Below are positions 2,210-20,000 of a stretch of 20,000 nucleotides of DNA, one piece after another. The translations under genes were made by a program, and so were the position numbers. Source of the DNA: Chiloscyllium plagiosum (Eukaryota); NCBI RefSeq assembly GCF_004010195.1, contig NC_057718.1:78169444-78189443 (forward strand), read 5' to 3'. The notes under the pieces were generated by a model, which had not been told where the DNA came from, searched no databases, and was given only the letters and a program-made list of their open reading frames with translations. Each line of letters opens with the position of its first letter. Position 1 is the stretch's first letter.

Positions 2210-3731
2210 TTGATCATAACCATTCCATCAGTTTACTTTCGATTATCAATGAAGTGATGGAAGGCATTATCAACAGTGCTATCAAGCACCACATGCTCAG
2301 AACCAAACTAAGCAGATTATTGCTATCAGGGTCACTCTGCTCCTGACCTCATTACAGCCTTGGTTCAAACATGGACAAAAAAACTAAATTTTAGAGGTGA
2401 AGTGAGAGTAAACTGATGGAATCTTCACATCAAGGCCACATTTAACCAAGTAGTCTCAAGGAGCCTGAGCAAAACCAGAATCAATGGAAATCGGGTGGGG
2501 GCTCTACTAGTTGGACTCAATCCTGGAAATTGGTCTTGGTTGTTGAAAGTCAGTCATCTCAGCTCCAGGGCATGTTTGCAGGAGTTCCTCTTTGTTCTAG
2601 GCCCAGCCATCTTCATCTGCTCTCTCAATGATCCCTCCATCATAAGGTCAGAAGTGGTAATGTTCGCTGATGATTGCACAATGTTCAGCATTGTCCGTGA
2701 TTCCTGAGATACCGAAGCAGTCCATGTTCAAATGATATATAATCTGGACAATACCTAGGCTTGGGCTGACAAGTGGCAAGTAACATTCATGCTATACAAA
2801 TACCAGGCTATGACCATCACCAACAAGAGACATTCTAACCACAACCCCTTAACATTCAGCAATGTTACCATCACTGAATCCCCACCACCAACATCTTGGG
2901 GCTTACCATTGACCAGAAACTCACTGGACTCCTCATATAAACACAGTGGCTACAAGAGCAGATCACAAGCTAGGAATACTGTGGCAAGTAACTCACCTCC
3001 TGACTCCCCAAAGCCTACTTAGCATCTATAAGGCGCAAGTCAAGAGTGTGATAGAATATTAGGAAAACGTGAGGACTGCAGATGCTGAAGATCAAAGTGG
3101 AGGTTGTGGTGCTGGAAAAGCACAGCAGGTCAGGCAGCATCCGAGGAGCAGGAGAATCGACGCTTATGCCCAAAATGTCGCTTCTCCTGCTCCTCAGATG
3201 CTGCCTGATCTGTTGTGCTTTTCCAGCGCCACAGTCTCGACTGTAATGGAATACTCCCGATTTGCCTGGATAAGTGCAGCTTTAACAACATTCAAGCTTG
3301 ACACTATCCAGGACAAAGCAGCTCACCTGATTGGCACCATATCCACAAACATCCACTTCCACCACCACCAAAACACAGTAGCAGCAGTGTGTACTATCTA
3401 CAAGATGCGCTACAGATATTCACCAAAGATCCTTAGACAGCATCTTCCAAACACATAAACACTTCTATCTAGAAGGACGAGGGCTGCATAACACCATCAC
3501 CTGCAAATTCCCTGTAAACCACTCACCATCCTGACTTGGAAATATATTGCTGTTCCTTCACTGTCACTGGGTCAAAATCATGGAATTCCCTCCATAAGGA
3601 CATTGTGAGCCAACCAACAGGGACTGGAATGGTTTAAGAAGGCAAATCACCATCAACTTCTCCAGGTAAATGGGATGGGTCATAACTGCTGGCCAGTCAG
3701 CGATGCCCATGTCCTACAAGTGAATAAAAGA
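2210..3731 (+). mobile_element. 5'-truncated, decayed CR1/L2-group LINE (RT region and 3' end), interrupted at 3061-3241
   Basis: RT motifs SISLLSIINEVMEGIIN, VLGPAIFIC, VMFADDCTMF, then YKAQVKSV.EY..AW..A..TT.KLDTIQ. Many stops and frameshifts. Ends near GAATAAAAG at ~3730. Confidence 0.85.
3061..3241. mobile_element. Penelope-like terminal fragment in fold-back form
   Basis: Inverted arms 3105-3161 and 3177-3233. Degenerate TSD TGTGATAGAATA (3047-3058) / TGTAATGGAATA (3242-3253). Related to 5421-5550 and 19257-19373. Confidence 0.75.
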
Positions 3732-3828
3732 AGCTAGTCTTTATTCACCAATAACTATTTCATCCAGGTTTTCATGTAAGAGGCTTGAGCTGATTTTCCA
3801 ACCAATCAGTCAGTTAAAATCAGGCAAG

Positions 3829-4156
3829 TTAGATTAGATTAGATTTGATTTCCTACAGTGTGGAAACAGGCCCTTCGGCCCAATTAGTCCACACCCACCC
3901 TCCGAAGAGCAACCCACCCAGACCCATTCCCCTACATTTACCCCTTCACCTAACACTATGGGCAAGTTAGCATGGCCAATTCACCTAACCTGCACATCTT
4001 TGGACTGTGGGAGGAAACCGGAGCACCTGGAGGAAACCCACACAGACACATGGAGAATGTGCAAACTCCACACAGACAGTTGCCCGAGGCAGGAATTAAA
4101 CGCGGGTCTCTGGTGCTGTGAGGCAGCGGTGCTAACCACTGTGCCACCGTGCCACC
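3829..4156 (-). mobile_element. Full-length tRNA-derived V-SINE (HE1-like)
   Basis: Minus strand begins GGTGGCACGGTGGCACAGTGGTTAGC (A box) with B-box-like GTTTAATTCC. V-domain GGTTTCCTCCCACAGTCCAAAGATGTGCAGGTTAGG, CR1-like tail and (AATCT)n terminus. Confidence 0.9.
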
Positions 4157-4334
4157 CCTTATCAAACTGACATCACACTGGCCCAGCACTACAATCTTCA
4201 CCATTTTTTTCAAGTGAGCCAAGGTTCCCGCCTCAGGAAGACACAGACTTTGTTAAAGTATGAACACCAATGCAATTGGGTTTCTAATTAAAATAGCAAT
4301 TAAACTGTCTCTGTGTCTTCTTCTGCAGGCACAT

Positions 4335-4425
4335 CCTGCCATCATTCTTTAGCAGGTGGAGAAATGTTAGAGGAGGATGATATAATCAATTGTGTCAAAG
4401 GTTTCAGACAAATCAGGAGGGATTA
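4335..4425 (-). mobile_element. Small ancient L2 RT fragment
   Basis: Minus translation PDLSETFDTIDY.ILL resembles the L2 RT motif LDLSAAFDTVDH.ILL. Confidence 0.55.
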
Positions 4426-4730
4426 AGCTTCATATGGTCTCACCAAAATCTTCTCCTCTTCGTCAAACTCTCATCAAAGATGCACCCTAATGGTTCTAGT
4501 GTAACCGTTACCCAGTAACAAGATTCAGCTTGCTTTTTTGAAGAAACTGGAGGAGGGGGAAGAATCACGTTGTCCTCATGGAGGAAGAGGAGAACAGGCA
4601 GGATGAAGACATTGATTGAATCGATACTACTGTTGCCAGCACCAGCTTAGAGGACAAGTGCACCTGATGTCACATAAGTTAGAGACTATGGTTGCATAAT
4701 TATATAGTCAGTTGCATAGTTAATAAGGTG

Positions 4731-5069
4731 AGCAGGATGGCACAGTGGCTCACTGCAGCCTCACAGTGCCAGGGACCCAGGTTTGATTTCAGCCTTGGTG
4801 ACTATCCATGTGAGTTTACACATTCTGCACATGTTTGCTTGGGCTTCCACCAGGTGCTCCAGTTTCCTCCCACAATCCAAAGATGTACAGGTTAGGTTTG
4901 GCCACAATGAATTGCCTCGTTGTGTCCAGGGATGGGCAGGCTAGGTGGATTAACAATGGTAATTGAGGAGCTATGGCAATAGAGTTGGGGGATGGCTCTG
5001 GAATGGATGCTTTTTGGAGGGTCAGTGAGCCAAATGGCCTCTTTCTGGAGTGTAGGGATTATCTGATTC
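4731..5069 (+). mobile_element. Diverged V-SINE (HE1-like) copy
   Basis: TGGCACAGTGG A box, GGTTTGATTTC B box, CAGGTGCTCCAGTTTCCTCCCACAATCCAAAGATGTACAGGTTAGG core and CAAATGGCCT...TGTAGGGATT tail. Confidence 0.85.
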
Positions 5070-5128
5070 CAACAACAGAGTTGCATACGAAAATTTGCCA
5101 TGTGCTGTGAATTTCATTTGACACTAAC

Positions 5129-5329
5129 TGAAATTAGAAAAACATAGGGTGGAAGGAAGACCGTCTCCATTGGCATCTCACAAGCTGTTAAATGAGTGAT
5201 CCGATTTTTTTTAGTCAACAGCACTGATGTTGTTACAAATTGTACAGGATTGTTGTCTTCAGCACAAAGTACTGTCTTGTGTGGATGTGATAGTGGCAAA
5301 CTCTTTTGAAAAGAGTCAGTAAAACAAGT
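5129..5329 (-). CDS. Candidate internal coding exon of an unidentified host gene (201 nt, phase 0/0)
   Basis: Acceptor CTTCTGCTTTTACAG, 67 open codons (TCFTDSFQKSLPLSHPHKTVLCAEDNNPVQFVTTSVLLTKKNRITHLTACEMPMETVFLPPYVFLIS), donor GTTAGT. Non-repetitive context. No homology recognised. Confidence 0.3.
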
Positions 5330-5420
5330 CTGTAAAAGCAGAAGTGGTTTGATGGAATCTGGAATAGATTTATGTTATGTGTCCTCTGTTGTCTCAGTTG
5401 CAAGATTGTTCCTGCGTTTA

Positions 5421-5782
5421 GGTAAAAACAATGACTGCAGAGGCTGGAAACCAGATTCTGGATCAATGGTGCTGGAAGAGCACAGCAGTTCAGGCAGCAT
5501 CGAGGAGCTTCAGCAAAATCGACATTTCGGGCAAAAGCCCTTCATCAGGAATAAAGGCAGAGAGCCTGAAGCGTGGAGAGATAAGCTAGGGGAGGGTGGG
5601 GTGGGGAGAAAGTAGCATAGAGTACAATGGGTGAGTGGGGGAGGAGAAGAGCTTCAGGGCGGAGGAAATGACCTGGGAGTTGCAGTGGGAGAGGGACTCC
5701 CTGAGATTCTTGTAGACATAGGAGGAAAACTTCTTCAAGTCAGGCATCCTTGCAAGAGGATTCGCACTCTCCACGCTTCAGG
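5421..5782 (-). mobile_element. Penelope-like element end (pseudo-LTR with hammerhead) plus a short inverted piece
   Basis: Reverse complement matches 19257-19373. Contains a hammerhead motif at 5519-5550. 5767-5782 is an exact inverted copy of 5565-5580. Confidence 0.75.
5519..5550 (-). ncRNA. Minimal type I hammerhead ribozyme motif (near-intact)
   Basis: Minus strand UC-CUGAUGA-A-GGGC-UUUU-GCCC-GAAA-U-GUC-GA. Core boxes and stem II are intact; the stem III palindrome ACGU reads AUGU. Confidence 0.75.
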
Positions 5783-6730
5783 ATAATCGTGGCTGATCAT
5801 CCAACACAATATCCTGTTCCCACCTTCTCCGTAAAGCTTTTATATACCTTTGGCCCCAAGAATTATATATATCGCCTTCTTGAACACATGCAATGTTTCG
5901 GCCTCAACTGCTTAGCACTCTCTGGGTGAAGAAATTTCACCTCATCTCAGCCTAAATGACCCACCCCATATCTTTACTGTGGGGTTCTGGACTCCCCGTC
6001 ATTGGGAACATTTTTCCTGCCTTTGCCTTGTTTAACCTGTTAACATTTTATAGGGTTCTATAGGCCCTCTCATTCTCCTAAACTGCAATGAACTGAGCCG
6101 GACTCTCTCATACATCAGTCCTGTTATCCCAGGAAGCAGTCTGGTAAATCTTAGTTGTACTCCCTCTATAAACAGAGAATCCTTCCTCAGATAAGTTCAA
6201 AACTGCACTAAATATTCTTAATGCTGTACTCAAATCCTCTTGGTATCAAGGTCAAAATATGATTTGCCTTCTTAAAAAGGGTTCTGGCAAAGGATCACTG
6301 GACTCAAAACGCGACCTCTGTATTACCCCACAGATTCTGCCAGACCTGCTGAGTTTCTCCAGCAATTTTTTGTTTTATGATATCTTCATCATCTGCAGCT
6401 CTTTATTTTATTAAACAATTTGCCTTTTTCACCACCTGCCTCATGTACATGCCTACTTTCAGAGACTAATATACAAGAACACCCAGGTCTCATTGCAATT
6501 CCCCTTTTCCAATCTGTTCATTCAGATAATAATCTGTCTTCCTGTTTTGCTACCAAGTGGCTAACCTCATATTTATCTACATTATACTTCATCTGCCACC
6601 CAGTTGCTCACTCAACTTCTCCAAATCACACTGAAGCATATCTGCATCCTCCTGACAGTTCACCCTCCCAGCCAGTTTTGTCTTGTCTGCAAAATTGGAG
6701 ATATTGCATTTGTTCCATCATCTATATCAT
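5783..6730 (-). mobile_element. Decayed CR1 LINE 3' region, interrupted at 6274-6417
   Basis: Antisense CR1-type segments GGCTGATCATCC, CTCTCTGGGTGAAGAAATTT..CTCATCTCAG, CCAAGTGG.TAACCTCA.ATTT.TC.ACATT and TGTC.TCTGCAAA (FADD region). Confidence 0.8.
6274..6417 (+). mobile_element. Short Penelope-like terminal fragment with a decayed hammerhead
   Basis: TSD ATTTGCCTT(C/T)TT at 6262-6273 and 6418-6429. Same family as 17445-17590 (GCCAGACCTGCTGAGTTTCTCCAGCAATTT...CATCTGCAG). Confidence 0.7.
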
Positions 6731-6950
6731 TACTCTAGAGTCTTTTATCTCTGGACCTCTGCACTATGGTCCTTGCTAACTATAAATCCAACATAAGAAT
6801 TTTACAAACTATAAGCAATAAAAATGGTATAAATTCTCCCTGGGCCTTACACAATCAGCTAGTTCCACTTGCGCACCCTCATGTTTTGACACAATTCCCA
6901 GACTGCTTCTAGAAGGTAAAATCTTATCAGATCCTATGGCTATTCTGTCA

Positions 6951-7115
6951 CCAGAGAGAGATGACTGGTGCTGATTTAACTTGAGGGTCACTAGAAGCTG
7001 AGATGTTGAGAAGGCGAGACCTTCAGGGTAATCTCAGCCAGTGCAAGAATTGAATCTATGCTGTTGGCATCTCTCTGGCATTGCCAACCTGCTGTCCAGC
7101 TAACTGAGCTAATCA
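6951..7115 (-). mobile_element. tRNA-derived SINE fragment (second family)
   Basis: Minus strand TTAGCTCAGTTAGC (A box), GATTCAATTCT (B box), then GTGACCCTCAAGTTAAATCAGCACCAGTCATCTCTCTC. Confidence 0.65.
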
Positions 7116-7120
7116 ACTGA

Positions 7121-8046
7121 TCTCAGACTGCTTCACTGTGGTGCTGCCTGTCAGAGACTGTTCCTAGACTGTTTCACCACAATGCTACTACAGGACGCTG
7201 CTAGCAGGCTGCCTCACTATAATGCTGACAGTTGGATATTATTTTATTACCTATTCACTGCAATTCTGCTACAAAACACTGTTCCCAGACTGCTTTACTT
7301 TGATGATGAGATGGACATTCTTCCTACACTGCTTCACTATGCTGCTGCTATAGGTCTGGAAATTGGGACTGGGTTGGGGGAGTAGATGGCAGGGATGATG
7401 GATGGGAGGGTTTTGATGGTCAGGCCGTGTAGGCTTGGGTGAAGAGAGATTGTGAGGACCCAGGAAGCGAGTGGTGAGATTATGATCCAGCAAAGCACCA
7501 GAGGGGAAGGAGGTTGGTGCAGAGAACTGGGAGGGGAACATGGAAAGGAGGCAGAGAAAGAGAGAGCCTCCCACCTCTTTGGCTGTCCTTGCCACTCCCC
7601 TACCCTGTCATGGCGACTAGGTGCTCCTTGTCAAATCTTTCCCCGTCCCCATACCTCTACTCCCGATTTCCCAGGCTCTCATCTTCCCTTCTCACTCTGA
7701 GAGCTTCCCCCCATTCAGCGCAGCCTCTCTACACCACTGAAGCCCAGTTCAAACTCACACATGCACATGCACAGTGATGTATTTGTGCATGATGTTACAA
7801 GTAAAATCTACATTTTGATGTCATTGCTTGGAAACATATGTCTCTGAATGAGCATGCATGCAAAGTTGCCCACAATTGTTGCTGTCAGCAAACACTGCCA
7901 CCCCAGAATGCTTCATTGCAATGATGCTAGAGGACATTGTTGCCAGTCTACTTCACTGGAAAGCCAACTGTCAGATATGTTCTCATACAGTTTCACTATC
8001 TTGCCAACTGTCAGATACTGTTCCCAGACTGCTTCACTGCAATGCT
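7121..8046 (+). repeat. Degenerate ~40-bp minisatellite (core CTGTTCCCAGACTGCTTCACTGCAATGCT) in two blocks, 7121-7350 and 7880-8046
   Basis: Core variants near 7121, 7158, 7205, 7250, 7279, 7321, 7903, 7940, 7978 and 8018. Confidence 0.7.
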
Positions 8047-8064
8047 ATATTTTGGATTGTGGAC

Positions 8065-9759
8065 ACCCTCATCTTCAAGCAGAAGGGGGAGAGGGAGGAA
8101 CTCAAAAATTGGAGACCAACCTCACTATTGAATGCGGATTACAAAATTCTGTCAAAGGTAATCGCCAACCGGGTCAGGTCTGCTCTCGGGTCGGTGATTC
8201 ACCCTGACCAAACCTGTGTTGTGCCGGGCAGAAAGATCGCTGAGAGCCTCGCGCTCCTCAGGGATACGATCGCCTACGTGCAGGACAGGGGGTTGGACAC
8301 CTGCCTGGTCAGCCTGGACCAGGAGAAAGCCTTTGACAGGATATCACACAGGTATATGAGAGATGTTCTCTCCAAAATGGGCTTTGGGGAGGGAATCTGC
8401 AATTGGATCAGACTGCTCTACACCAACATTGTCAGTGCAGCCTCAATCAATGGGTGGGAATCAGATAGCTTCCCAGTCAGATCTGGAGTCAGGCAGGGCT
8501 GCCCCCTCTCTCCTGCCTTGTTTATGTGCTGCATANNNNNNNNNNNNNNNNNNNNNNNNNNNNNNNNNNNNNNNNNNNNNNNNNNNNNNNNNNNNNNNNN
8601 NNNNNNNNNNNNNNNNNNNNNNNNNNNNNNNNNNNNNNNNNNNNNNNNNNNNNNNNNNNNNNNNNNNNNNNNNNNNNNNNNNNNNNNNNNNNNNNNNNNN
8701 NNNNNNNNNNNNNNNNNNNNNNNNNNNNNNNNNNNNNNNNNNNNNNNNNNNNNNNNNNNNNNNNNNNNNNNNNNNNNNNNNNNNNNNNNNNNNNNNNNNN
8801 NNNNNNNNNNNNNNNNNNNNNNNNNNNNNNNNNNNNNNNNNNNNNNNNNNNNNNNNNNNNNNNNNNNNNNNNNNNNNNNNNNNNNNNNNNNNNNNNNNNN
8901 NNNNNNNNNNNNNNNNNNNNNNNNNNNNNNNNNNNNNNNNNNNNNNNNNNNNNNNNNNNNNNNNNNNNNNNNNNNNNNNNNNNNNNNNNNNNNNNNNNNN
9001 NNNNNNNNNNNNNNNNNNNNNNNNNNNNNNNNNNNNNNNNNNNNNNNNNNNNNNNNNNNNNNNNNNNNNNNNNNNNNNNNNNNNNNNNNNNNNNNNNNNN
9101 NNNNNNNNNNNNNNNNNNNNNNNNNNNNNNNNNNNNNNNNNNNNNNNNNNTCCGTCAGGAAGTGGTCAGCACGTAGTGTCCTTGAGATCCTTCGGGAAAA
9201 GGAGAGGGCGGATCCTGTCGAGCGGTTCGCTGAGCAGACTGTCAAAGCCATTTGGCAGGATGCCTCATCGCCAGAACTTTCCAACACGCACCAAGACATG
9301 GCTTGGCTGGTGGTGAGAAGGGCTCTGCCTGTGAGATCATTTATGCACGCCCGGACTCTCTGCCGCACCGCACGCTGCCCTCGAAGCGGTTGCGGGGGGA
9401 ACGAGACTGTCATATACCTCCTTCTGGAATGTGCCTATGCAGAGGGAGTCTGGAGAGGAATGCAGTGGTGTTTGTCGAGGTTCGTCCCGAGCAGTGCCGT
9501 GACGCGGGACTCCGTGCTCTACGGTCTGTTTCCCGGGACGCACACCGAGACGAACATCAACTGTGCCTGGAGGATCATCAACTCGGTGAAGGACGCTCTC
9601 TGGGTGGTCTGAAACCTGCTGATCTTCCAGCTGAAGGAGTTGACCCCGACTGAGTGTTGCAGACTGGCACATTCCAAGGTCCAGGACTACGTGTTGAGGG
9701 ATGCGCTGAAGCTTGGGGCAGCTGCCGCCAAGGCGCGGTGGGGAAAGATCACTGTGTAA
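8065..9759 (+). pseudogene. Tx1 ORF2 remnant (reverse transcriptase and zf-RVT)
   Basis: NWRPTSLLNADYKILSK, SLDQEKAFDRISH, GVRQGCPLSPALF, CPRSGCGGNETVIYLLLEC. Premature TGA at 9610-9612; the frame continues (NLLIFQ..ARWGKITV) to TAA 9757-9759. The middle lies in the gap. Confidence 0.9.
8536..9150. other. Assembly gap (615 N)
   Basis: Run of N. Confidence 1.
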
Positions 9760-10081
9760 AGTCTGCCTGCCTAACGAAGAACAGGGGGCCCATGCAGTCA
9801 TTTGGGCTCTGCTGACGCCTCAGCTAATTATATGGGCATATGATTGAAAAATGTACAGACCTGTATAAAAATGATAAATTCTGAAATCTGTATGTAAATG
9901 TTTACATATGTATGGCATGACCAATTGTACAGACCATCAAATTATTTTATGAATAAAGTATATTTTTGAAATAAAAAAAATATTTTGGATTGTGGACTGA
10001 CATAGGTAAAGATCTATTTTAAAAAGCAAAAGATGTAAAAGGGATTGCTTTGCTTTTTAAAAGCAAGCTACCAACACATAT

Positions 10082-10876
10082 TGTAAAGTTATTTAGACTG
10101 TGGCTTACTCACCAGTGGGGGAAGATTATTTGCTGATGAACTTGCACCAGGGTGTGTACAAAGTGGGGCTTAGTCAGCAACGAGTAGCTCATTACTCTGT
10201 GGAGTAGTGATGACTTGTCACAAAGCCCCCCTTCCTGCCAACAACTATGTGGTTGGCGTACAAGTAGCTGAACAGTTTGTGGGTGTGAATGGTATAGCAA
10301 GAAGCCTTAGGACCTCCGGACAGGGAGGTGCTGCCTTTCTGTGGTATAACACAACTAAAGCCTGAAGAAAGTCAGTTTATTTCCCTCATCAATTGCTGTA
10401 GGCTGTGGCTTGTAGCCAATAAGACAGCAATTTCTAAACCAGTCACATTGTGCCTCTTGATAGCAGATGAAAGTATTTCGAGAAGAAAGATCAAGGACCA
10501 GCAAGTCATTGTGAACCAAAAGGAACACCTGAGTGAACCATGAAGACAGGGACTACTGAACTTCATTCCCATCCATCCATACCACTGACTTTTTTTGCAT
10601 CTTTCTTTATGTGTGTGCAAGGACAATTTTATAACAGGTTTGAGAGTTTCAGTGGAGTTACATGTCAACAATTCATATTTGTTTACCTACAGTAATTTGT
10701 AATAAGTAATAATTCTTGTTCAGCACAGGAACCTGGTCCATGCTTCTGTTAACCTGGATCTAAAAAGACAGGCAGATTTGGAATTTTGTGAACATTGATA
10801 AAATCTTTAACTTCTGTGACAACTCCAGGATTAGCAAGACTTGATTTCCAATGTGCTAACTCAATGAGTTGCGACA
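10082..10876 (+). mobile_element. Solo LTR (795 bp)
   Basis: TGT...ACA termini flanked by a 4-bp direct repeat ATAT (10078-10081, 10877-10880). No internal coding sequence. Orientation is tentative. Confidence 0.65.
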
Positions 10877-10904
10877 ATATTCAAGATGGAAATCAATAGA
10901 TTTC

Positions 10905-11050
10905 TACATGTTAAAAACATCAAAGGACAAAATGGTGGTTCAGGAAAATCAAATTGAAGTAGATGATCAGCCACAATCTTATTGAATGCCAGAAAAGACT
11001 CAACAGGCTGAATGGCCTACTCCTGCTCCTGTGTCTTATGTTTTTCATAT
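10905..11050 (+). mobile_element. CR1 LINE 3'-end fragment
   Basis: GATCAGCCA.AATCTTATTGAATG...GGCTGAATGGCCTACTCCTGCTCCT..TCTTATG, typical of a CR1 terminus. Confidence 0.8.
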
Positions 11051-11974
11051 GATTTTCCAATGGGGATCCTTTCTGAACATTTACATATATTTTAATTTTT
11101 ATATTGTATATTAATTTACTTTCTCTCATCTGCCTTGAGCAAACTAGATGCTGAGAGTTCTTGAGCTGGAAGTCAGACCAGGTTGACAATTTCAGCCCAC
11201 AGCTTGTTCCGCAATGTCTCAATGTTAGGCATCAAAATCTCAGAGCACACTCTATAGGCATGGACACTATGTGCCCAGGGATATGTACCAAGCTCACAGA
11301 CTGGACAAATCTGCATCTCTGGGCTGTTCGCTTACTCTCTTAGAGTTTACTCACTTTGAGCCGACCCGGATGTTCACAATTTCCTTGCCTTGCCATGCCT
11401 TTTTCTGCCTTGCGCCTAAATTAGTGATGCCAGCCTCTCAGTACTGCTGTATTGCTGTGCCGCTTAGCACGGACACAAAACCAGGAAGTTTGTCATTGTT
11501 GGCAGCAGTCCTCAGTCAAGTCAAAGGAGATAGTCTGTGATCAGGAGATCCGAACACATTAAGTCAAGAGCAGCCTCCAATATCAGTCCAGGATTCGGGC
11601 AGGCAGTAGGCTACTTAGGGCGGCCAGAGTCAGAATCCTGTCCCCATAACGGATGAGGAGCCAAATATGGGAAAGCCCATAACCCATGTGAACATTTTCT
11701 GCCCTATTGTGAGCCGTTTTCCTCCTGGAATTACACAGAGGTCAGTTTTTAAGGGAGATGAAAGAGGGTGACACTGCTGTTACTTTTGGTGCAGATAGGG
11801 AGGTGTCTGCAGTGAGTGAGTAAACAGTGCAGAGGCCATGTAGAGTTAGTTGTGTTGGAATTGGGAAGTGAGTCAGTGAGGGAAGGTGTTGCAGATTTCT
11901 CGGAGGTGGTTTAGTAGCAGAGATAGAGTGAGTATGGAGTATTGGAGTGGAGATGGGGATATTTAGCAGGTGAA

Positions 11975-12184
11975 GTATAGAGGTTCAGGGACTTTCTTCC
12001 TATAATTGCTGGACATTCCTTCACAGGGCTGTGACTGCACTGACCCAGGTTCCAGGCTGCCATGGTCTGGTTTCAGTGGCTTCCACTGCCAGTCCTGAGG
12101 GAAGAGGACATCCAGAGTCTGCATCCACCAGGGCCTCTAGGTTCCAGCCTGCAAAGTGAGTGCCAATTTACCCTTCTCTTCCAT
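11975..12184 (-). pseudogene. PIF/Harbinger Myb/SANT-like DNA-binding ORF relic
   Basis: Minus translation across frameshifts: MEEKGKLA/HFAGWNLEALVDA/LDVLFPQD..KP/QTMAAW/VSAVTAL*RNVQQ/RKKV. This fits the F..LE.LV..V....LFP..W..VA..V...R..QC.KK pattern. Confidence 0.65.
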
Positions 12185-13954
12185 ATTTGGGGCAAATGTC
12201 AGGAACTGTGCAGGGTATCTCTAGATTAAAAGTGTTCTCTTCAGTGTTCTGCATCAGCACTAAGTGTTGCCTGTACATTCCAGGATATCCCAGCAGTGTG
12301 AGCTGTTCTGGTTATGACTAGTAATGCCATAGGAGTAGGGTATGTAGTTTATGAAGTGAATTAGGTAAGATGCACAAGAAACCCTCCATGAAACTTGACA
12401 AAACTAAAACTTAGCCAAAGCAACACAAGATTCAGCCCATTTCTTTTTAAAGAGCTTATAGTGATGTTCTTCTCTTTCCTTCAAATATGCCTTGAGAAAT
12501 TTGCTGTAAAAATATATAACCTTAATGTAGGTCTGTTCAACAGCTTTATTCTGGACAGAGTTTGTCTCTGTTCTCACTCTCAGACTTGCTGCTAATCATA
12601 ACTTCCTCTTCCTCTAATCTGATAATGGCATCTGTTGTTGCGGTGGCAGTTGTTTTAATCTTCCCCTGCCCATCCAATCTCCCCAAATATTGAGCAATTT
12701 TGTCAACACTTATCTAGAATAATTATGTTATTTACATGTAAACTATTGTAGTATCTTGTGGGATAACAGTTTGAAAGAATATTGCATATCCTCTGGATAT
12801 TCTCATCAGTCTCCTTGGGCACTTACTATCTGTGAAATTTCAGTGTACAATTCATTCCACTGTCAAGTTGAGAACATCACAAAATACTAGCGAACAAAAT
12901 GAAACCTCTAAAAAATATGAACTTCTTTAAACTGAGGCCCATTCCGCCCTCTTGATCAAATGTAAAACACCTTACAAGCTGTAGAACAGATAGTCGAGGA
13001 TTTCTCCTCTATTGTCTTGTTCCAATATTTATGCCTTTAAAAAGTAAGAGACTAAACTGGAGAGAAATCCTCCATGAAGCTCAACCAAATTTGAGCTCAA
13101 CCAGCCATTTTGTGTAAAATTCAGCCCACAAAATCAGGGTGTATTTGATCTGTGGATTTAACCTCCATGAGCCTCGAATGTTTTTTGACAACCATGATTA
13201 TGATGCAGGTTGGGTTATGAATCATCGATCTGTGGAATGTGTGCTGAATACAAACCTTTAGCATTGAGTCATATGGACCAAGCTAGAATTAGCAAGTGAA
13301 TTTAAATTATCTCGGTTTAATCGGTAATAAATGAGAGATCAGGTTACATAAGTTTCATTTCATTGTTTGGAAAGATCAATGGATTTTTGAAGTTTCTTTG
13401 GAAGTAAATCCAAATTATGCATTTTCTTTGCTCTTTACCACTGTTCTGATAATATTGGAAAGAGCAGTCATGATTCAGGTATGGGATGTGAGAACAGGAT
13501 GCATGAGAGGAGAGAGAGAACCGGTCACCTCGGAGGAGAGAGAGAATGGGATGTATGAGAGCAGATGATGAAGAACAGGTTACATAATAGCAGAAAGAAT
13601 GGGACATATGAGTGGAGAAAAATAGGAAGAGAGATATTTTGGGACATGTGAGAGTATAATGTGATCTGTTAAACAAGCACACAATTGAAATGAGATTTAT
13701 GAGGTGAATAAGAATGGGAACAATGGAAAGAAGAACACTCTCTCTAAGGTCCAAATTGCAATTTGGAATGTTCCACATATTGAAATAAAAGGGTTGCTTA
13801 TAAATTAAGGCAAGTTCGATAACTTTAAAATATTAACTGTACATGGAGGATAATGAGATGCTCAGAGGATTTTGTAGCAGACCCATTATGAAGAAAGATT
13901 CAAAGAATATTTCACCCTATATATATGAATGTTAACAAAAATGTGAACAAATGA

Positions 13955-14495
13955 ATTGTTGGCCTTTTCGTCAAGAGAGCTGGAATATAAAGCAGGCGAA
14001 GCTATATCATAGCCATACAGAGCTAGGACATAGGGGGGCATGAGGGGGCATAGTTTCAAATTGAGGGGTGATAGATATAGGACAGATGTCAGAGGTAGTT
14101 TCTTTACTCAGAATATTCGGGTCGTGGAACGCACTGCCTGCAACAGCTGTAGACTTGCCAACTTTAAGGGCATTTAAATGGTCATTGGATAGGCATATGG
14201 ACGAGAATGGACTTCAGATTGGTTTCACAGGGCGGCGCAACATCAAGGGCCGAAGGGCCTGTATTGCACTGTAATGTTCTATAGCTCTGTGTGCAGTCAT
14301 GGGCATATCTTAATGTATAGGCTTTGAAGTGTCCATTGTAGTTTCATCAGAATGATACTGGGTGTAAAAGTACTACATTTTAAGGGAAGATTGAAGGAGA
14401 TGCTTTGTACTTGTTAATATAACAGATTAAAGAATAATCTAATTGACACATTTAAAATGATCAAAGGAGCTATTAAGATACATAGAAACTATTTA
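13955..14495 (+). mobile_element. Old CR1 ORF2 fragment with a younger CR1 3' end nested at ~14030-14283
   Basis: LAFSSRELEYK..YRA and later CVQSW..F.RMI.G..LID.FKMIKG. Nested RGHSFKLRGDRYRTDVRGSFFTQ..WNALP with tail GGGCCGAAGGGCCTGT..TGTAATGTTCTAT. Confidence 0.8.
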
Positions 14496-15164
14496 AAACC
14501 AACAATACAGCAATTTAATTTCCTCACTCCTTTTTACTGCAGTCCTTTCACAGTGTAGGCCAGATGGCGTTCTCCAAAGCCCCATTTTAGGATTCCAATT
14601 TTTGCAAGACCCTTAGATGAGGTAGAATTTATTAACAGAACATTCAAAATTTGGGGGAATTGCTTCACTACTTCACTCTCACGTACACAAGCATGCAAGG
14701 TAGAAAGGGAAGAAGTTACAAATATTTTTTTTAAAAATCAAAGATATTGAGTATAGATTGATATAACTTAGATCCAGTAGATCTATAACCAACTGAGTAT
14801 TTCTCGGTTGACTGATCTCGTAGCAATTCTTTTCTTGGGGACTGGGATGTAATCAATTGAAGTCAGAGGTACAGCAATATTTCTTGTGAGTCCAATTTTC
14901 AGGCAAAATGCACGATTTTATTTTGGAGATGAGATTTATGAGAGCAACTAGGCAGCGTGCTCTCCAGCTTTCTAATGCAGTGAGCTGCTCTTCTAATGGT
15001 ATTCAAACAGCAACTGAAGTCAGAATCCAAATTGTATGCTTAAACACTTCAACAAATGCAGGTTCCAGTCATGCGACAAGCTGTTTCTGCTCAATCATTC
15101 AGAAATGTTCGGCTTTTTTTTAAAAAAGAGTATCATGCAGGGTATGTATAAATAACAGCAAAAT

Positions 15165-15907
15165 ATGTGGACATTAGAAATCCAAGTGTATTTTTTGCAA
15201 ACATCTTTGTATTTTCTGAGTAATTCAAAGATGTGCAGGTTAGGTGAATTGGCCAAACTAAACTGCCCATAGTGTTCAGGGATGTGTAGGTTAGGTGCAT
15301 TAGTCAGGGGAAATGTAGGGAATGAGTCTGGGTGGGATACTTCTCAGAGAGTTGGTATGAACTTGTTGGGCCAAATGGCCTGTTTCCACACTGTAGGGAT
15401 TCTATGATTCAATTATTCTAAAGCGAATCTCACTATATCTCCCTGTTGACGTTTTTCCAGAAATGAAAATGTAGTATCTGAATTCTCTAATATCTCTGAA
15501 CTGTTAACTTAATAGTAAGATGTTCACTTTGGGAATTGATCAATTCTCTTTGGCTTTCATACTTTTTCAAAAATATCTTTCTCAACTACACTTACTGCTT
15601 GACACACCTATACATTCTCATTGTCTTCTCTACAATAGCACTGTTTTAATATGTTCACATGACACAATTGATTCTTTTTCCTATGATCAGAAGTATCAAT
15701 TAAGTATGTTTCTTGACTAACCGTTTTAATTACTTTGTAGGGACCATTGAATTCTGCTTTTAATGGCTCACCTTGTAAAGGTAAGGTACTAAAACTTCAT
15801 TTCCTGCTTTAAAAATTCTGGTTGTGGCATATTTATCAGTCCACTCTTTCATCTTATTTTAGGAAGTCTTCAAATGTTCCTCTGCATGCTCCTGATAACC
15901 CTTTGAG
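15165..15907 (-). mobile_element. Gypsy (Gmr1-like) pol fragment: integrase C-terminal GPY/F region and downstream linker
   Basis: Minus strand EEHLKTS*NKMKEWTDKYATTRIFKAGNEVLV/LPLQGEPLKAEFNGPYKVIKTVSQETYLIDTSDHRKKNQLCHVNILKQCYCRE, then SEILENSDTTFSFLEKRQQGDIVR and, past the SINE, LLRKYKDVC. Confidence 0.85.
15225..15410 (+). mobile_element. 5'-truncated V-SINE (HE1-like) inside the Gypsy fragment
   Basis: CAAAGATGTGCAGGTTAGGTGAATTGGCC...GGGCCAAATGGCCTGTTTCCACACTGTAGGGATTCTATGATTC, matching the 3' half of 3829-4156. Confidence 0.9.
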
Positions 15908-16407
15908 NNNNNNNNNNNNNNNNNNNNNNNNNNNNNNNNNNNNNNNNNNNNNNNNNNNNNNNNNNNNNNNNNNNNNNNNNNNNNNNNNNNNNNNNNNNNN
16001 NNNNNNNNNNNNNNNNNNNNNNNNNNNNNNNNNNNNNNNNNNNNNNNNNNNNNNNNNNNNNNNNNNNNNNNNNNNNNNNNNNNNNNNNNNNNNNNNNNNN
16101 NNNNNNNNNNNNNNNNNNNNNNNNNNNNNNNNNNNNNNNNNNNNNNNNNNNNNNNNNNNNNNNNNNNNNNNNNNNNNNNNNNNNNNNNNNNNNNNNNNNN
16201 NNNNNNNNNNNNNNNNNNNNNNNNNNNNNNNNNNNNNNNNNNNNNNNNNNNNNNNNNNNNNNNNNNNNNNNNNNNNNNNNNNNNNNNNNNNNNNNNNNNN
16301 NNNNNNNNNNNNNNNNNNNNNNNNNNNNNNNNNNNNNNNNNNNNNNNNNNNNNNNNNNNNNNNNNNNNNNNNNNNNNNNNNNNNNNNNNNNNNNNNNNNN
16401 NNNNNNN
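15908..16407. other. Assembly gap (500 N)
   Basis: Run of N. Confidence 1.
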
Positions 16408-16530
16408 CGGGGCGCGAAACGGGACGTCACGTGACCGCCCGCAACCTTCCGGGGCGCGGAACGGGACGTCACGTGACCGCCCCGCACTCTCCCGGGTGCG
16501 AGCCGGGGATGTCACGTGGCCACGCCCCCT
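16408..16530. promoter_or_regulatory. CpG-rich tandem array (42-43 bp period) of E-box/CLEAR motif plus GC box; probable promoter edge
   Basis: GTCACGTGAC at 16426-16435 and 16468-16477, GTCACGTGGC at 16511-16520. Each is followed by CCGCCC or CCACGCCCC. CpG-dense against a CpG-depleted background. Confidence 0.65.
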
Positions 16531-16626
16531 GCTTGTGTTACAGAGTCACCACAGGGTTTTGAGTGCTGAATCCATCCAGAGTCACAGCCAGCCTTCCGTT
16601 TTTAAAGTAAGGAATATATTTACATG

Positions 16627-17352
16627 CTTCATCAGGTGGTTGTGAAGCAGGACTATAAGGCACAGAATTTAATGCAAAAGATTACAGTGATACAATGATA
16701 CTTTGAACAAATGTAAATTGTTAAGTCTTTCATCTTTTAAAATGGATTTGCTGGTTTCGGTTCTTTAATATGTAAATCCCAGAACTACTTTTAAGTCACA
16801 TGCTCAAGAATAATTTAAAGTTTTATAACAAAAGGTGACATCTCAGCTCAGACAATGCCTTAAAGATGAGTCAGACCAATCTTGAGTCAGACTGGTTCTA
16901 TTTCCAAAATGGAATTTACAAATATATAGATTCACTGACTGCATTGACTAATTGCAGATTCTGCATTTTGAGCAAAATAGAATGTACCTGCAAACATAAA
17001 TTCACCCCATAAACTTAAATGTGTGTGCACCTTACATTATCTTGAGAACGTGACTGAAAAGAAGCTCTGGGATTTACATATTAAAGAACCAAAACCAGTA
17101 AATCCATTCTGAAAAGTGAAAGACTTAACAATCTAGGTTTGTTCAATATATCATTGTATCACTGTAATCTTTTGCTATAAATTCAGTGTCTTATGGTCCT
17201 GCTTCACAACCACCTGATGAAGAAGCAGCGCTTCAAAAGCTAGTGCTTCTTTTCCAGCAACACATTTCCATCTCTAATCTCCAGCATCTGCAGACCTCAC
17301 TTTCTCCTTTTAACTTTGTTGACCCCAGTCCAACATTGGCTCATCCAAATCA
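16627..17352 (+). mobile_element. Penelope-like terminal fragment with a ~190-bp inverted duplication
   Basis: 16627-16819 is a diverged reverse complement of 17031-17222. Hammerhead motif at 17211-17245. A piece of the 3061-type family occupies 17250-17308. Confidence 0.7.
17211..17245 (+). ncRNA. Minimal hammerhead ribozyme motif with one core substitution
   Basis: CAC-CUGAUGA-A-GAAGC-AGC-GCUUC-AAAA-GCUA-GUG: stem I CAC/GUG, 5-bp stem II, palindrome AGCU. The GAAA box reads AAAA, so it is likely inactive. Confidence 0.65.
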
Positions 17353-17354
17353 CT

Positions 17355-17935
17355 GCATTTGAAGGCATGTAGCATTCAAACCAAAACAAATGAACTAGTT
17401 ACAAATTGAGATAAATAAGTACGCTCTGTTGTCCATTACTGAGACCACTCATTTCTGAAGAAGGGTCACTAGACACAAAGTAATAACTTTGGTTTCTCAC
17501 CACGGTTGCTACCAGACTTGCAGAGCTTTTCCAGCAATTTCATTTTTGTTTTTGATTTCCAGCATCTGCAGTTCTTTCGGTTTCTAAGAAATAATGGGAA
17601 CTGGTCAAAATGGTACAGCGATTATCATGGCTGATTTTAACTTACATATAGACTGGAAAAATCAGATGGGGAGAAAGTAGGTTAGATGAGGAATTCATTG
17701 AATGTTTTCTTAGATCACCATTCTACGCCACCAACCAGAGAACAGGCTATATTAGACCTGGTTTTAATAACTGAATGTGGGATCAATTACTGACCCTAGG
17801 TAGCAGAGACCATAATATGATTGAATTTTACGTACACTTTAAGCTAGAAAAATGTGGGTCTAAGTCTACTAATTGAACATAAATAAGAGCAATTATGAAT
17901 GTATGAAAACCAAGCTACCAAAGTGAACTGGCAAT
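17355..17935 (+). mobile_element. Old CR1 ORF2 AP-endonuclease fragment, interrupted at ~17445-17590
   Basis: ACSIQTKTNELV..EINKY..SITET, IIMADFNLHIDW, PTREQAILDLVL, LGSRDHNMIEF. Confidence 0.8.
17445..17590 (+). mobile_element. Short Penelope-like terminal fragment with a decayed hammerhead
   Basis: CTGAAGA-A-GGGTC-ACTA-GACAC from 17455. Body matches 6274-6417. Confidence 0.7.
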
Positions 17936-18206
17936 TTATTTTCTGGTTTTAAAAAAGAAAAGAAGGCTTAGGATAGCATTGATTCGATAGAAAGTAATCA
18001 GATAAGTTAATTGTTGTTTTAAGTCTGTCCAACAGAAAGGCTGCAGTAGTGGGTACAGTGGATTCTTTCTTGATTATGTTTTTGGAGATAAGCCTCTTGA
18101 TTAAACTTAAAATATAAGTCATAGCTATTAATTTAACCTGGGGCAGTTTTTGTAGTGGAATAAGACGGTGTTATGTTCTGGGTCTGTAGATTGTGAGGGA
18201 GCAAAA

Positions 18207-19117
18207 ATGGCCTTTGCAGTGATATGTACTTCTTGTCAGATGTGGGAGTTTAAAGAGAGTTTAAGGGTTACTGCGGATTATATCTGCATAAATGCTGTTG
18301 GATGCAAATCTGATCAGATCGAGTGGATCAGTTGGAGAGACAAATAGAAGCAATGAGGAATTTGCAACAGCTACAGTGTGTGATGGACTGCAGTTAAAGA
18401 AAGGGGGGAATGTCTCAGATACAGTCACATAGATGGGTTAACTCCAGGAAGGGTAAGAGAGGCAGGCAGGATATACCCATTTCAAACAGGTATGCTGTTT
18501 TGGAAAATGTAGGGGATGATGGATTCTCAGGGGAACATAGCACGAACAGCCAAGTTTCTGGTATTGAGACTGGCTCTGATGCAACGAGGGGTACGTCGGC
18601 TTCCAAGAGATCAATTGTGTTAGGGGATCCTGTAGTCTGAGGTACAGACAGACGTTTCTGTGGCCAGCAGAGAAAAATCAGAATCGTGTGTTGTTTCCCT
18701 GGTGCCAGGATCAAGGATGTCTCAGAGAGGGTGCAGAATGTTCTCACGGGGGAGAGGGGCCAGCAGGAGGTTATTGTCCACATTGGAACCAACGACATTG
18801 GAAGGGAAAAGCTTGAGACTGTGAAGGGAGATTACAGAGAGTTAGGTAGAATTTTAAAAAGGAGGTCCTCAAGGGTAGTAATATCTGGATTACTCCCAGT
18901 GCTACGAGCTAGTGAGGGCAGGAATAGGAGGATAGAACAGATGAATGCATGGCTGAGGAGCTGGTGTATGGGAGAAGGATTCACATTTTTGTATCATTGG
19001 AATCTCTTTTGGGGAAGAAGTGACCTGTACAAGAAGGACGGATTGCACCTAAATTCGAAGGAGACTAATATACTGGCAGGGAAATCTGCTCGAACTGCTT
19101 GGGAGGATTTAAACTAG
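18207..19117 (+). pseudogene. CR1 ORF1: zinc finger, coiled coil and SGNH/GDSL esterase (disrupted)
   Basis: MAFAVICTSCQMWE..DYIC/KC, coiled coil RVDQLERQIEAMR, ISNRYAVL. Esterase blocks IVLGDP (GDS mutated), FPGA, HIGTND, DGLHLN. Several stops and frameshifts. Confidence 0.88.
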
Positions 19118-19256
19118 TAAGGTGGGGGGGGTGGGACCCAGAGAGATAGTGAGGAAAGGGATCGATCTGAGACGGGTACAGCTGAGAACAGAAGTGAGTC
19201 AAACAGTCAGGGCAGGCAGGGACAAGGTAGGACTAATAAATTAAACTGCATTTATT

Positions 19257-19373
19257 GCTTTTGCCCGAAGCGTTGATTTTGCTGCTCGTCGGATGCTGCC
19301 TGAATTGCTGTGCTCTTCCAGCACCACTGATCCAGAATCTGGTTTCCAGCATCCGCAGTCATTGTTTTTACCT
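19257..19373 (+). mobile_element. 117-bp Penelope-like terminal insert
   Basis: Perfect 10-bp TSD TGCATTTATT at 19247-19256 and 19374-19383. Begins inside hammerhead stem II (GCTTTTGCCCGAAG). Same family as 5421-5550. Confidence 0.85.
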
Positions 19374-19703
19374 TGCATTTATTTCAATGCAAGGGGCCTA
19401 ACAGGGAAGGCAGATGAACTCAGGGCATGGTTAGGAACATGGGACTGGGATATCATAGCGATTATGGAAACATGGCTCAGGGATGGGCAGGACTGGCAGC
19501 TTAATGTTCCAGGATACAAATGCTACAGGAGGGATAGAAAGGGAGGCAAAAGAGGAGGCGGTGTGGCATTTTTGATAAGGGACAGCATTATAGCGGTGCG
19601 AAGGAAGGATATTCCTGGAAATACATCCAGGGAAGTTATTTGGATGGAACTGAGAAATAAGAAAGGGATGATCACCTTATTGGGATTGTATTAGACCCCC
19701 CAA

Positions 19704-20000
19704 TGTTTGTGAGAAGATTTGTAGCTCAGGTGCTCGTTGTTGTGGTTCTGTTCGCCGAGCTGGGAATTAGTGTTGCAGACGTTTCGTCCCCTGTCTAGGT
19801 GACATCCTCAGTGCTTGGGACCCTCCTGTGAAGCACTTCTGTGATCTTTCTTCCAGCATTTGTAGTGGTTTGAATCTGCCGCTTCCAGTTGTCAGTTCCA
19901 GCTGTCCGCTGCAGTGGCCGGTATATTGGGTCCAGGTCGATGTGCTTGTTGATTGTATCAGTGGATGAGCAGCAGACAGCTGGAACTGACAACCGGAAGC
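19704..20000 (-). mobile_element. Penelope-like element 3' end (ORF tail and pseudo-LTR) with an inverted segment from 19970
   Basis: Minus translation INKHIDLDPIYRPL resembles the tail after the GIY-YIG domain. Hammerhead at 19775-19814. 19970-20000 is the reverse complement of 19881-19911 with 2 mismatches. Confidence 0.85.
19775..19814 (-). ncRNA. Minimal type I hammerhead ribozyme, core intact
   Basis: Minus strand GCA-CUGAGGA-U-GUCACCU-AGAC-AGGGGAC-GAAA-C-GUC-UGC: stem I GCA/UGC, CUGANGA and GAAA boxes, stem II, palindromic ACGU stem III, GUC cleavage triplet. Confidence 0.85.

Follow-up and report, generated by a model that had tools for sequence, protein, structure and literature searches.

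The ribozyme-like motifs in this 20,000-nt stretch of shark DNA (the window) are real, and the seven inserts that carry them are probably the 3′ ends, 5′-truncated or inverted and dead on arrival, of EN+ Penelope-type elements (PLEs) from three lineages or more, not retrozymes. The model builds on direct observations: the motifs, short target-site duplications (TSDs), inversions, the ORF link of family D and the 5′-edge pile of family A. A first-pass annotation had pictured an abundant set of ribozyme-bearing units of several families, which our results support, and had suggested that they behave like retrozymes, which our results do not support: no head-to-tail tandem units, each with a complete hammerhead, occur in the 20-kb window, the motifs are minimal, four of the seven inserts are inverted, and the 5′ ends lie upstream of or inside the motif and not at the cleavage site.

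Minimal hammerheads and their families

All seven motif sites named in the first-pass annotation exist, with four stem II variants of a minimal type I hammerhead (min-HHR), but few are whole. The cores at 5548(−) and 19811(−) are complete and 17214(+) has a single core change, G12>A; that is, the CUGANGA and GAAA boxes with an NUH triplet are complete at two of the seven sites and one change short of it at a third. Two further sites are decayed and have no cleavage triplet, 6284(+) with A6>G, G8>A and G12>A, and 17455(+) with G12>A and A15.1>G. The remaining two, 3162(+) and 19257(+), are partial, beginning about 2 nt within stem II without the CUGANGA box. An extra half motif, absent from the earlier list, terminates an inverted arm at 16635–16627(−).

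An extra base between 9 and 10.1, together with the G10.1–C11.1 pair, is found at all five sites retaining the 5′ box region. The palindrome at 15.2/16.2 that replaces helix III is exact at 17214 and 19811; at 5548 it is a wobble (U at 15.2), while C, which gives the exact form, accounts for 72–83% of the aligned run depth. Helix I is 2–3 bp in all three near-intact motifs and the helix III loop is absent. Stem II is 4–7 bp long, and between families its sequence differs yet its pairing is kept. That the near-intact motifs (3/3) show the extra base after A9, G10.1–C11.1, a self-complementary 15.2/16.2 and the 2–3 bp helix I is a point in favor of reading them as PLE ends. The four stem II types, announced earlier as at least four families, are real, but they reduce to about three lineages because the tails of the GGGC type (subfamilies A and B) and the GGGUC type (family E) are homologous.

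A loose descriptor that asks for the core and a 3-bp stem II is weak evidence by itself: it matched twice in the window, while 30 shuffles averaged 0.23 matches and reached at most 2. The full min-HHR descriptor, drawn up after the motifs had been seen and from features in PMC4209133, gave two matches when exact and three at one mismatch, and none in 500 of 500 shuffles. That the motifs are chance occurrences in decayed repeats is extremely unlikely: Rfam returned 12 matches in the window at E ≤ 10 with no hammerhead family among them, some shuffles reached two loose matches, and a usable core is missing at four of the seven named sites, but the full motif never arose in the 500 shuffles, the majority base of the aligned runs restores the 15.2/16.2 palindrome in family A, and in family D the motif overlaps the end of a PLE ORF. 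For 5548, 17214, and 19811 the chance reading is ruled out. Unconstrained co-folding gave no active dimeric hammerhead fold, such folding being no test of self-cleavage, and motif scans of viral contigs, metagenome contigs and prokaryote genomes gave no matches.

Insert structure and associated ORFs

Features of the hammerhead-bearing inserts (positions in the window; C3, a position of the hammerhead core)
Feature	Position	Strand	Remarks
Subfamily B (GGGC-type) insert, head-to-head palindrome	3061..3242	.	within LINE remnant
Arms of subfamily B insert	3096-3161 / 3177-3242	- / +	right arm opens inside stem II
One-sided 35-nt tail	3061-3095		on left arm (-) of subfamily B insert
Subfamily A (GGGC-type) 3′ end	5420..5644	-	~96 nt upstream region, min-HHR and tail
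min-HHR of 5420..5644	C3 at 5548	-	predicted cut between 5521 and 5520
ORF start, 34 codons	5646..5766	-	Met at 5747; joined directly to upstream region, 5644-5648
16-nt exact inverted copy of 5565-5580	5767..5782	+	closes the 5420-5782 insert
Family E (GGGUC-type) stub, 144 nt	6274..6417	+	decayed min-HHR, C3 at 6284
Family C insert, ~700 nt	16627..17345	.	inverted arms, 88% alike; right end approximate
Family C arms	16627-16821 / 17029-17222	- / +	207-nt spacer between
Subfamily B tail, 60 nt	17249..17308	+	82% to 3061-3120; directly behind family C hammerhead
Second family E stub	17445..17585	+	decayed min-HHR, C3 at 17455; ends approximate
Subfamily A stub, 117 nt	19257..19373	+	opens inside stem II; in LINE endonuclease frame
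Family D 3′ end, Penelope/Poseidon-like	19705..19968	-	ORF end, min-HHR and tail to ~19705
Inverted family D copy, start only	19969..20000	+	94% to 19881-19912; runs off window

Short TSDs of 10–12 bp at AT-rich sites flank three of the six inserts tested, the seventh (19705–20000) running off the window. They are the three reported previously: 19247–56/19374–83 (10 bp, exact), 6262–73/6418–29 (12 bp, one mismatch) and 3047–58/3242–53 (12 bp, two mismatches). The first two outscore all null pairs (150 random boundary pairs), and the third is equalled by 13 of the 150; the host LINE frame repeats across this third pair (…VIEY / VMEY…). A TSD was sought and none found at the 5420–5782, 16627–17345, and 17445–17585 inserts.

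The four inverted inserts bear the inversion signature of PLEs, and one of them (3061–3242) carries the one-sided tail. In family C, the left arm ends just past the CUGAUGA box and the right arm carries the min-HHR at 17214, behind which the subfamily B tail may reflect either a nested insertion or a template switch. The 5′ edge of the first family E stub lies 10 nt upstream of its core, the subfamily A copies at 5420 and 19373 have the same 3′ end, and the distance from core to 3′ end is 107–133 nt. The earlier description of short non-coding inserts fails for 5420–5782, with its ORF start, and for 19705–20000, with its ORF end; the other five show no ORF pieces, and one of these, 16627–17345, is about 700 nt long. 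Six of the 12 Rfam matches are weak ones to miRNA models, all on the 3061–3242 insert. A miRNA there was rejected: the scores fall far below gathering and the matches reflect the inversion. The palindromes of PLE inserts can mimic miRNA hairpins.

Family D retains the last 57 codons of an RT + GIY-YIG ORF at 19968–19798(−), and its intact min-HHR (C3 at 19811) overlaps the stop codon. This ORF end is 77–94% identical to shark proteins (four matches among 13 candidates); the proteins P0002 and P0124 carry RVT_1, and GIY-YIG was recognized in two homologues (E 0.024 and 2e-5). Because the CX2-5CxxC linker is absent from all three proteins checked, we regard the family as Penelope/Poseidon-like. 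When 122 proteins were searched against the window with tblastn, family D was the only match, with none for families C and E.

The 34-codon ORF start of family A aligns with residues 1–34 in three shark proteins, with 30, 25, and 24 identities over the 34 positions. In other family A copies this segment comes after the tail, with an 18–21 nt spacer between, and joints 5766>5419/5420 and 5763>5420 occur in three of four runs. Pfam gave no domain for the proteins P0123, P0126, and P0127, hhalign against Poseidon-like proteins gave 0.4%, the family A HMM against 127 proteins had its best outside match at E 0.008, and an ESM Atlas search with the ORF start returned no informative cluster. The top match to the ORF start, P0125, was discarded as spurious, being a plant protein of repetitive sequence with 36% identity. 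The family A element may be a Neptune.

The Penelope-type RT/endonuclease, proposed from the outset as the mobilizing agent, is tied by its ORF to family D and, by inference, would serve the other families. Linking each family to an autonomous RT + GIY-YIG element succeeded for family D; no RT was linked to family A and no ORF to families C and E. The family A ORF without a link to an RT domain, and families C and E tied to no ORF, count against the PLE-end reading.

Family A in sequencing runs and the origin of the inserts

Runs were aligned to family A (the 5548 family) only, and their summed contig depth gives ratios along the element, not copy number. Depth over the hammerhead is 17–39 times that over the ORF start (4/4 runs). 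It falls 2.0–4.9-fold just upstream of the core (four runs), to 20–50% of the depth over the core, a step to which sister subfamilies with other upstream sequence may contribute. Behind 5552 there is a pile of loose ends, 588 of them in X1, 178 in X21, and 124 in X15, with an agreement of 0.33–0.53 and, in X1, a median length of 255 versus 14–18 at its other listed piles; unique flanks would produce this pattern. A point against is that X2 has no 5552 pile in the loose-end rows listed (24 of 819). Family A ends of ~135 nt are in huge excess and form a discrete size class; they start ~8 nt upstream of the core and so miss the cleavage site.

If the inserts are truncated PLE ends, the pseudo-LTR (pLTR) of each PLE lineage would hold a minimal type I hammerhead particular to that lineage. 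As published PLE work suggests, the GIY-YIG nuclease would nick AT-rich DNA, and the RT would be primed ~105–135 nt downstream of the hammerhead core and copy toward the 5′ end. Synthesis would mostly quit early, most commonly within stem II or ~8–10 nt upstream of the core, the latter as found for one family, and second-nick priming or a template jump would add an inverted or non-collinear segment. The same literature suggests that a min-HHR on its own forms helix III only with a second copy; if so, the solo, mostly mutated motifs here are unlikely to cleave.

A point against this model is the sharp 5′ edge of family A, which is not random truncation and could be where a short RNA with its own transcription begins. 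The ~135-nt class could then be a true SINE-like, non-autonomous family, whose RNA would be transcribed from solo copies, beginning just ahead of the core, and moved in trans by PLE protein. The fixed 3′ end, the pile of 5′ ends with its excess over the ORF start, and the same geometry in the 144-nt family E stub all fit. We nevertheless think it unlikely: two window copies open inside stem II and one extends 96 nt further upstream, the depth ahead of the core keeps 20–50% of its value over the core, and the transcript of a full-length element's 5′ pLTR, internally primed, would yield the same product. Nor does the RNA help. In the X21 poly(A) library, 1201 of 12,955,460 reads align to family A, on both strands, 97% of them run on into unlike sequence, and they pile up at neither a start nor an end; circles, which this library could easily miss, left no trace.

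Very unlikely, in our judgment, are retrozymes in the form of internally deleted elements with two pseudo-LTRs ~210–365 nt apart, which would be transcribed, cut by paired hammerheads, circularized and re-inserted; the 5420–5766 copy would then represent a permuted monomer that lacks 18 nt of a 365-nt unit. In this copy the ORF start does abut the stretch upstream of the hammerhead, and the tail-to-ORF spacer of 18 nt closes the unit. Of the 15 joints listed (of 53), 13 connect the upstream region (5551–5623) to the ORF start (5648–5744). The preprint bioRxiv 10.64898/2026.07.22.740005 also reports retrozymes that average 363 bp in its one chondrichthyan and derives them from PLE pLTRs, but this is a mean over families and the match may be chance. 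The 13 joints have 13 different breakpoints, in one contig each, with a short side of just 20–28 letters at 85% likeness, and not one of the 15 listed has support among the raw X21 RNA reads. The window's own 5644/5648 junction is bridged by none of the 24 pieces listed, and at 5644 another sequence follows in 71 contigs of X1 and 134 of X2. Furthermore, a tandem unit is absent from the window, two inserts hold ORF pieces where retrozyme units are non-coding, and no window motif has the helix I of ~6 bp and short capped helix III of a canonical type I hammerhead.

The recurrent ORF-start-to-pLTR junctions with varying breakpoints could be retrozyme precursors. A broader proposal, that PLE replication repeatedly makes such fusions of ~210–365 nt and that those keeping both pLTRs are two-hammerhead mini-elements able to cut and circularize, and thus retrozymes at birth, is quite unlikely; if true, the fusions and the sharp 5′ edge would open to direct test both how animal retrozymes originate and what the PLE hammerhead does.

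Relation to known systems

Non-LTR retrozymes, as described in the parts of PMC7229834 and bioRxiv 10.64898/2026.07.22.740005 consulted, form head-to-tail arrays with a complete hammerhead per unit and give circular RNAs. In those parts, the 2020 paper (PMC7229834) ties them to canonical, not minimal, motifs, and the preprint accepts minimal motifs too and reports retrozymes in its one chondrichthyan genome. The window inserts share with these accounts the type I hammerhead, PLE ancestry and dispersed monomers, but differ in having minimal motifs and no head-to-tail arrays.

For EN+ PLEs, the excerpts of PMC3846280, PMC8557442, and PMC11167929 that we compared describe an inverted 5′-truncated copy, a one-sided tail of 30–40 bp, partial tandems and TSDs of 8–10 bp; the window has head-to-head inversions, a 35-nt one-sided tail, 10–12 bp TSDs at AT-rich sites, TSD-less junctions and 3′ ends ~110–130 nt past the hammerhead. 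Its core-to-3′-end distance of 107–133 nt resembles that in the compared part of PMC11167929, where the RT starts 111–118 nt past stem II. Unlike those elements as described there, the window copies are extremely short (117–360 nt) and piled at the upstream edge of the hammerhead, and neither this 5′-edge pile nor the recurrent ORF-start-to-pLTR junctions feature in the descriptions compared. What PLE hammerheads do is treated as an open question in the same excerpts of PMC8557442 and PMC11167929. The very many copies, the cleavage-site-independent 5′ edge and the recurrent junctions are good material on where PLE RNA starts, and these features of the shark genome are suited to asking how retrozymes arise.

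A literature search, with repeat databases, subscription journals and the family lists of the 2026 preprint outside its scope, found no paper on these shark families. Min-HHRs are known from the pLTRs of metazoan PLEs (Cervera and de la Peña 2014, PMC4209133), whose main text names fishes, coelacanth, Xenopus and reptiles, with sharks unnamed there. Compared with that main text, the window motifs agree in the core boxes, the extra base after A9, G10.1–C11.1, the palindromic 15.2/16.2 and the lack of helix III, and further common points are the presence of more than one stem II family in a genome, the predominance of solo motifs, which that text ascribes to truncated PLEs, and opposite-strand pairs 100–700 bp apart; the window motifs differ in length, with only 2–3 bp in helix I and 4–7 bp in stem II. 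Both the motif and the insertion pattern are of the kind already described, to which the window adds shark examples.

Hammerhead motifs and inserts

The seven hammerhead sites named in the first-pass annotation fared unevenly: two have a complete core and a third differs by a single change, while two are decayed and two start inside stem II (Table). A full descriptor based on features in the available text of Cervera and de la Pena 2014 (PMC4209133) (an extra base after A9, the pair G10.1–C11.1, self-complementarity at 15.2/16.2, a UH triplet and a helix I no shorter than 2 bp) gave two exact sites, or three with one mismatch allowed, against 0 in 500 shuffles. Discrimination from chance by the loose descriptor is weak (two matches; shuffle mean 0.23, maximum 2, 30 shuffles), and an Rfam search of the window at E ≤ 10 matched no hammerhead family. 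At least four distinct families had been proposed, and four stem II types are present; the tail, however, is homologous between GGGC-type (subfamilies A and B) and GGGUC-type (family E) copies, which brings the types down to some three lineages: A/B/E, C, and D. The copies at 3162 and 19257 are independent and have about the same first base, which suggests a second preferred stop of the reverse transcriptase (RT).

Seven inserts in the window bear hammerheads, four of them with inversions. The reported target-site duplications of 10–12 bp are present at three of the six inserts testable; two have scores higher than any of 150 random controls; the score of the third is weak, but duplicated codons in the host LINE frame back it. 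The surplus of one inverted arm at 3061–3242 corresponds to the one-sided tail known from Penelope-like elements (PLEs), as described in the accessible parts of PMC3846280 and PMC8557442. An expansion of PLEs in the introns of the whale shark is known (bioRxiv 10.1101/443036, available text). The subfamily B tail at 17249–17308 and the family C hammerhead ahead of it form a chimera of two PLE lineages, made by nested insertion or template switch. The window otherwise consists mostly of LINE remnants and SINE copies, with two gaps.

Table. Features of the window
Position	Feature
3162(+)	Motif, starts ~2 nt inside stem II
5548(−)	Motif, core complete
6284(+)	Motif, decayed
17214(+)	Motif, G12>A
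17455(+)	Motif, decayed
19257(+)	Motif, starts ~2 nt inside stem II
19811(−)	Family D motif, core complete
16635(−)	Half motif, overlooked in first pass
3061–3242	Insert with inversion; one arm longer by 35 nt
5420–5782	Insert with inversion
16627–17345	Insert with inversion
19705–20000	Insert with inversion
16822–17028	AT-rich spacer, 207 nt, between family C arms
17249–17308	Subfamily B tail immediately behind family C hammerhead
5766–5646(−)	ORF start, matches residues 1–34 of three shark proteins
19968–19798(−)	Last 57 residues of family D protein
1047–2200	Broken reading frames, presumably like gag region of Gypsy-type LTR retroelement
8045–9976	Young-looking LINE (RT frame, gap, cysteine-rich C-terminus, A-tail), which we take to be L1/Tx1-like; host site a 40-nt-period repeat region
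7116–7354, 7904–8047	Degenerate repeat, period ~40 nt
3838–4165, 4720–5070, 15222–15410	SINE-like repeat, ~330 nt, 75–82% alike; presumably shark HE1 SINE
16408–16518	42-bp tandem repeat, GC-rich, 2.6 copies, adjoins assembly gap

Family A in sequencing reads

The query 5380–5830 matched 36,911 and 66,145 records in two DNA contig sets (X1, X2), 1,201 in a raw poly(A) single-cell run (X21) and 4,905 in a presumed RNA contig set (X15); the unique left flank of the 5420 copy is also present in X1. The majority base at 5524 (72–83%) yields an exact palindrome, and the family A core is therefore complete. The hammerhead has 17–39 times the depth of the ORF start; immediately upstream of the core, depth drops 2.0–4.9-fold. 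In X1, X21 and X15, loose ends form a pile behind 5552, with four common letters followed by long heterogeneous sequence. This gives a shared 5′ edge at about 5556, which lies 8 nt upstream of core base C3; in X2 the pile is absent among the best 24 of 819 loose-end rows. The family E stub at 6274 begins 10 nt upstream of its core. Cleavage of the 5548 motif is predicted between 5521 and 5520, where the rows listed hold no pile comparable to that at 5552, and the RNA-end table for 5380–5830 holds no read-end piles. The discrete size class at issue in the first pass is thus real in family A reads, as a ~135-nt class of hammerhead-headed ends, but its bounds are not set by ribozyme cleavage. Family A accounts for 93 RNA reads per million, on both strands and with 97% continuing into unlike sequence, as for repeats carried inside host transcripts; X21 is a poly(A) library, in which circular RNA could go unseen.

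The ORF-start segment follows the family A tail after an 18–21-nt spacer in three runs and is therefore the start of family A's own ORF. We take its N-terminus to be Neptune-type; neither Pfam, our own HMM nor hhalign linked it to an RT. In the window copy (5420–5766) the ORF start is fused to sequence that lies upstream of the hammerhead, and the resulting permuted stretch lacks 18 nt of a 365-nt unit. A less probable reading of such a fusion is a retrozyme precursor; a 2026 preprint reports retrozymes averaging 363 bp in its one chondrichthyan and derives them from PLE pseudo-LTRs (bioRxiv 10.64898/2026.07.22.740005, available text). Fusions of this sort make up 13 of the best 15 of 53 joints; each has its own breakpoint in one contig (short side 20–28 letters), and none of the 24 pieces listed bridges the window's own junction. 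One-off jumps between templates, or deletions, account best for the fusions; in what is available of PMC3846280 and PMC8557442, PLEs show both partial tandems and deletions mediated by microhomology.

The coding end of family D

Most of the motifs had been placed in short non-coding inserts. Family D is coding: it encodes the end of a protein with RVT_1 and, in homologues, GIY-YIG, and its hammerhead overlaps the ORF stop codon. The protein matches come from Chiloscyllium punctatum at 77–94% identity, which marks the DNA as that of a bamboo-shark-like fish. None of the three family D proteins checked has the zinc-finger linker that Neptune and Nematis carry, which, by the published PLE criterion as available, points to a putative Penelope/Poseidon assignment. 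The copy at 19705–20000 is a plain PLE end, 5′-truncated and inverted. Two annotated shark host proteins, a 5′-nucleotidase (P0001) and a MAP3K7 isoform (P0004), have C-termini of family D endonuclease sequence, being either exonised PLE copies or annotation artefacts.

Insertion and class assignment

Following the available text of PMC11167929, AT-rich DNA would be nicked on both strands by the PLE nuclease, and RT would start inside the RNA, downstream of the hammerhead. In the anole element, 111–118 nt separate stem II from that start (PMC11167929); window copies have their 3′ ends 107–133 nt past C3. Copying would mostly end at the hammerhead's upstream edge, where either the template RNA begins or RT stalls at the structure. 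Because insertion in vitro did not need hammerhead cleavage (PMC11167929) and single minimal hammerheads did not cleave (PMC4209133), in the experiments covered by the available texts, solo copies in the window are probably inert.

The proposal of a retrozyme-like population is not supported within the window: non-LTR retrozymes require a head-to-tail tandem, of which the 20 kb contain none among hammerhead-bearing units, and a canonical hammerhead, which these motifs are not. The motifs belong instead to the minimal hammerhead class of PLE pseudo-LTRs, and the inserts share the insertion architecture of endonuclease-bearing PLEs.
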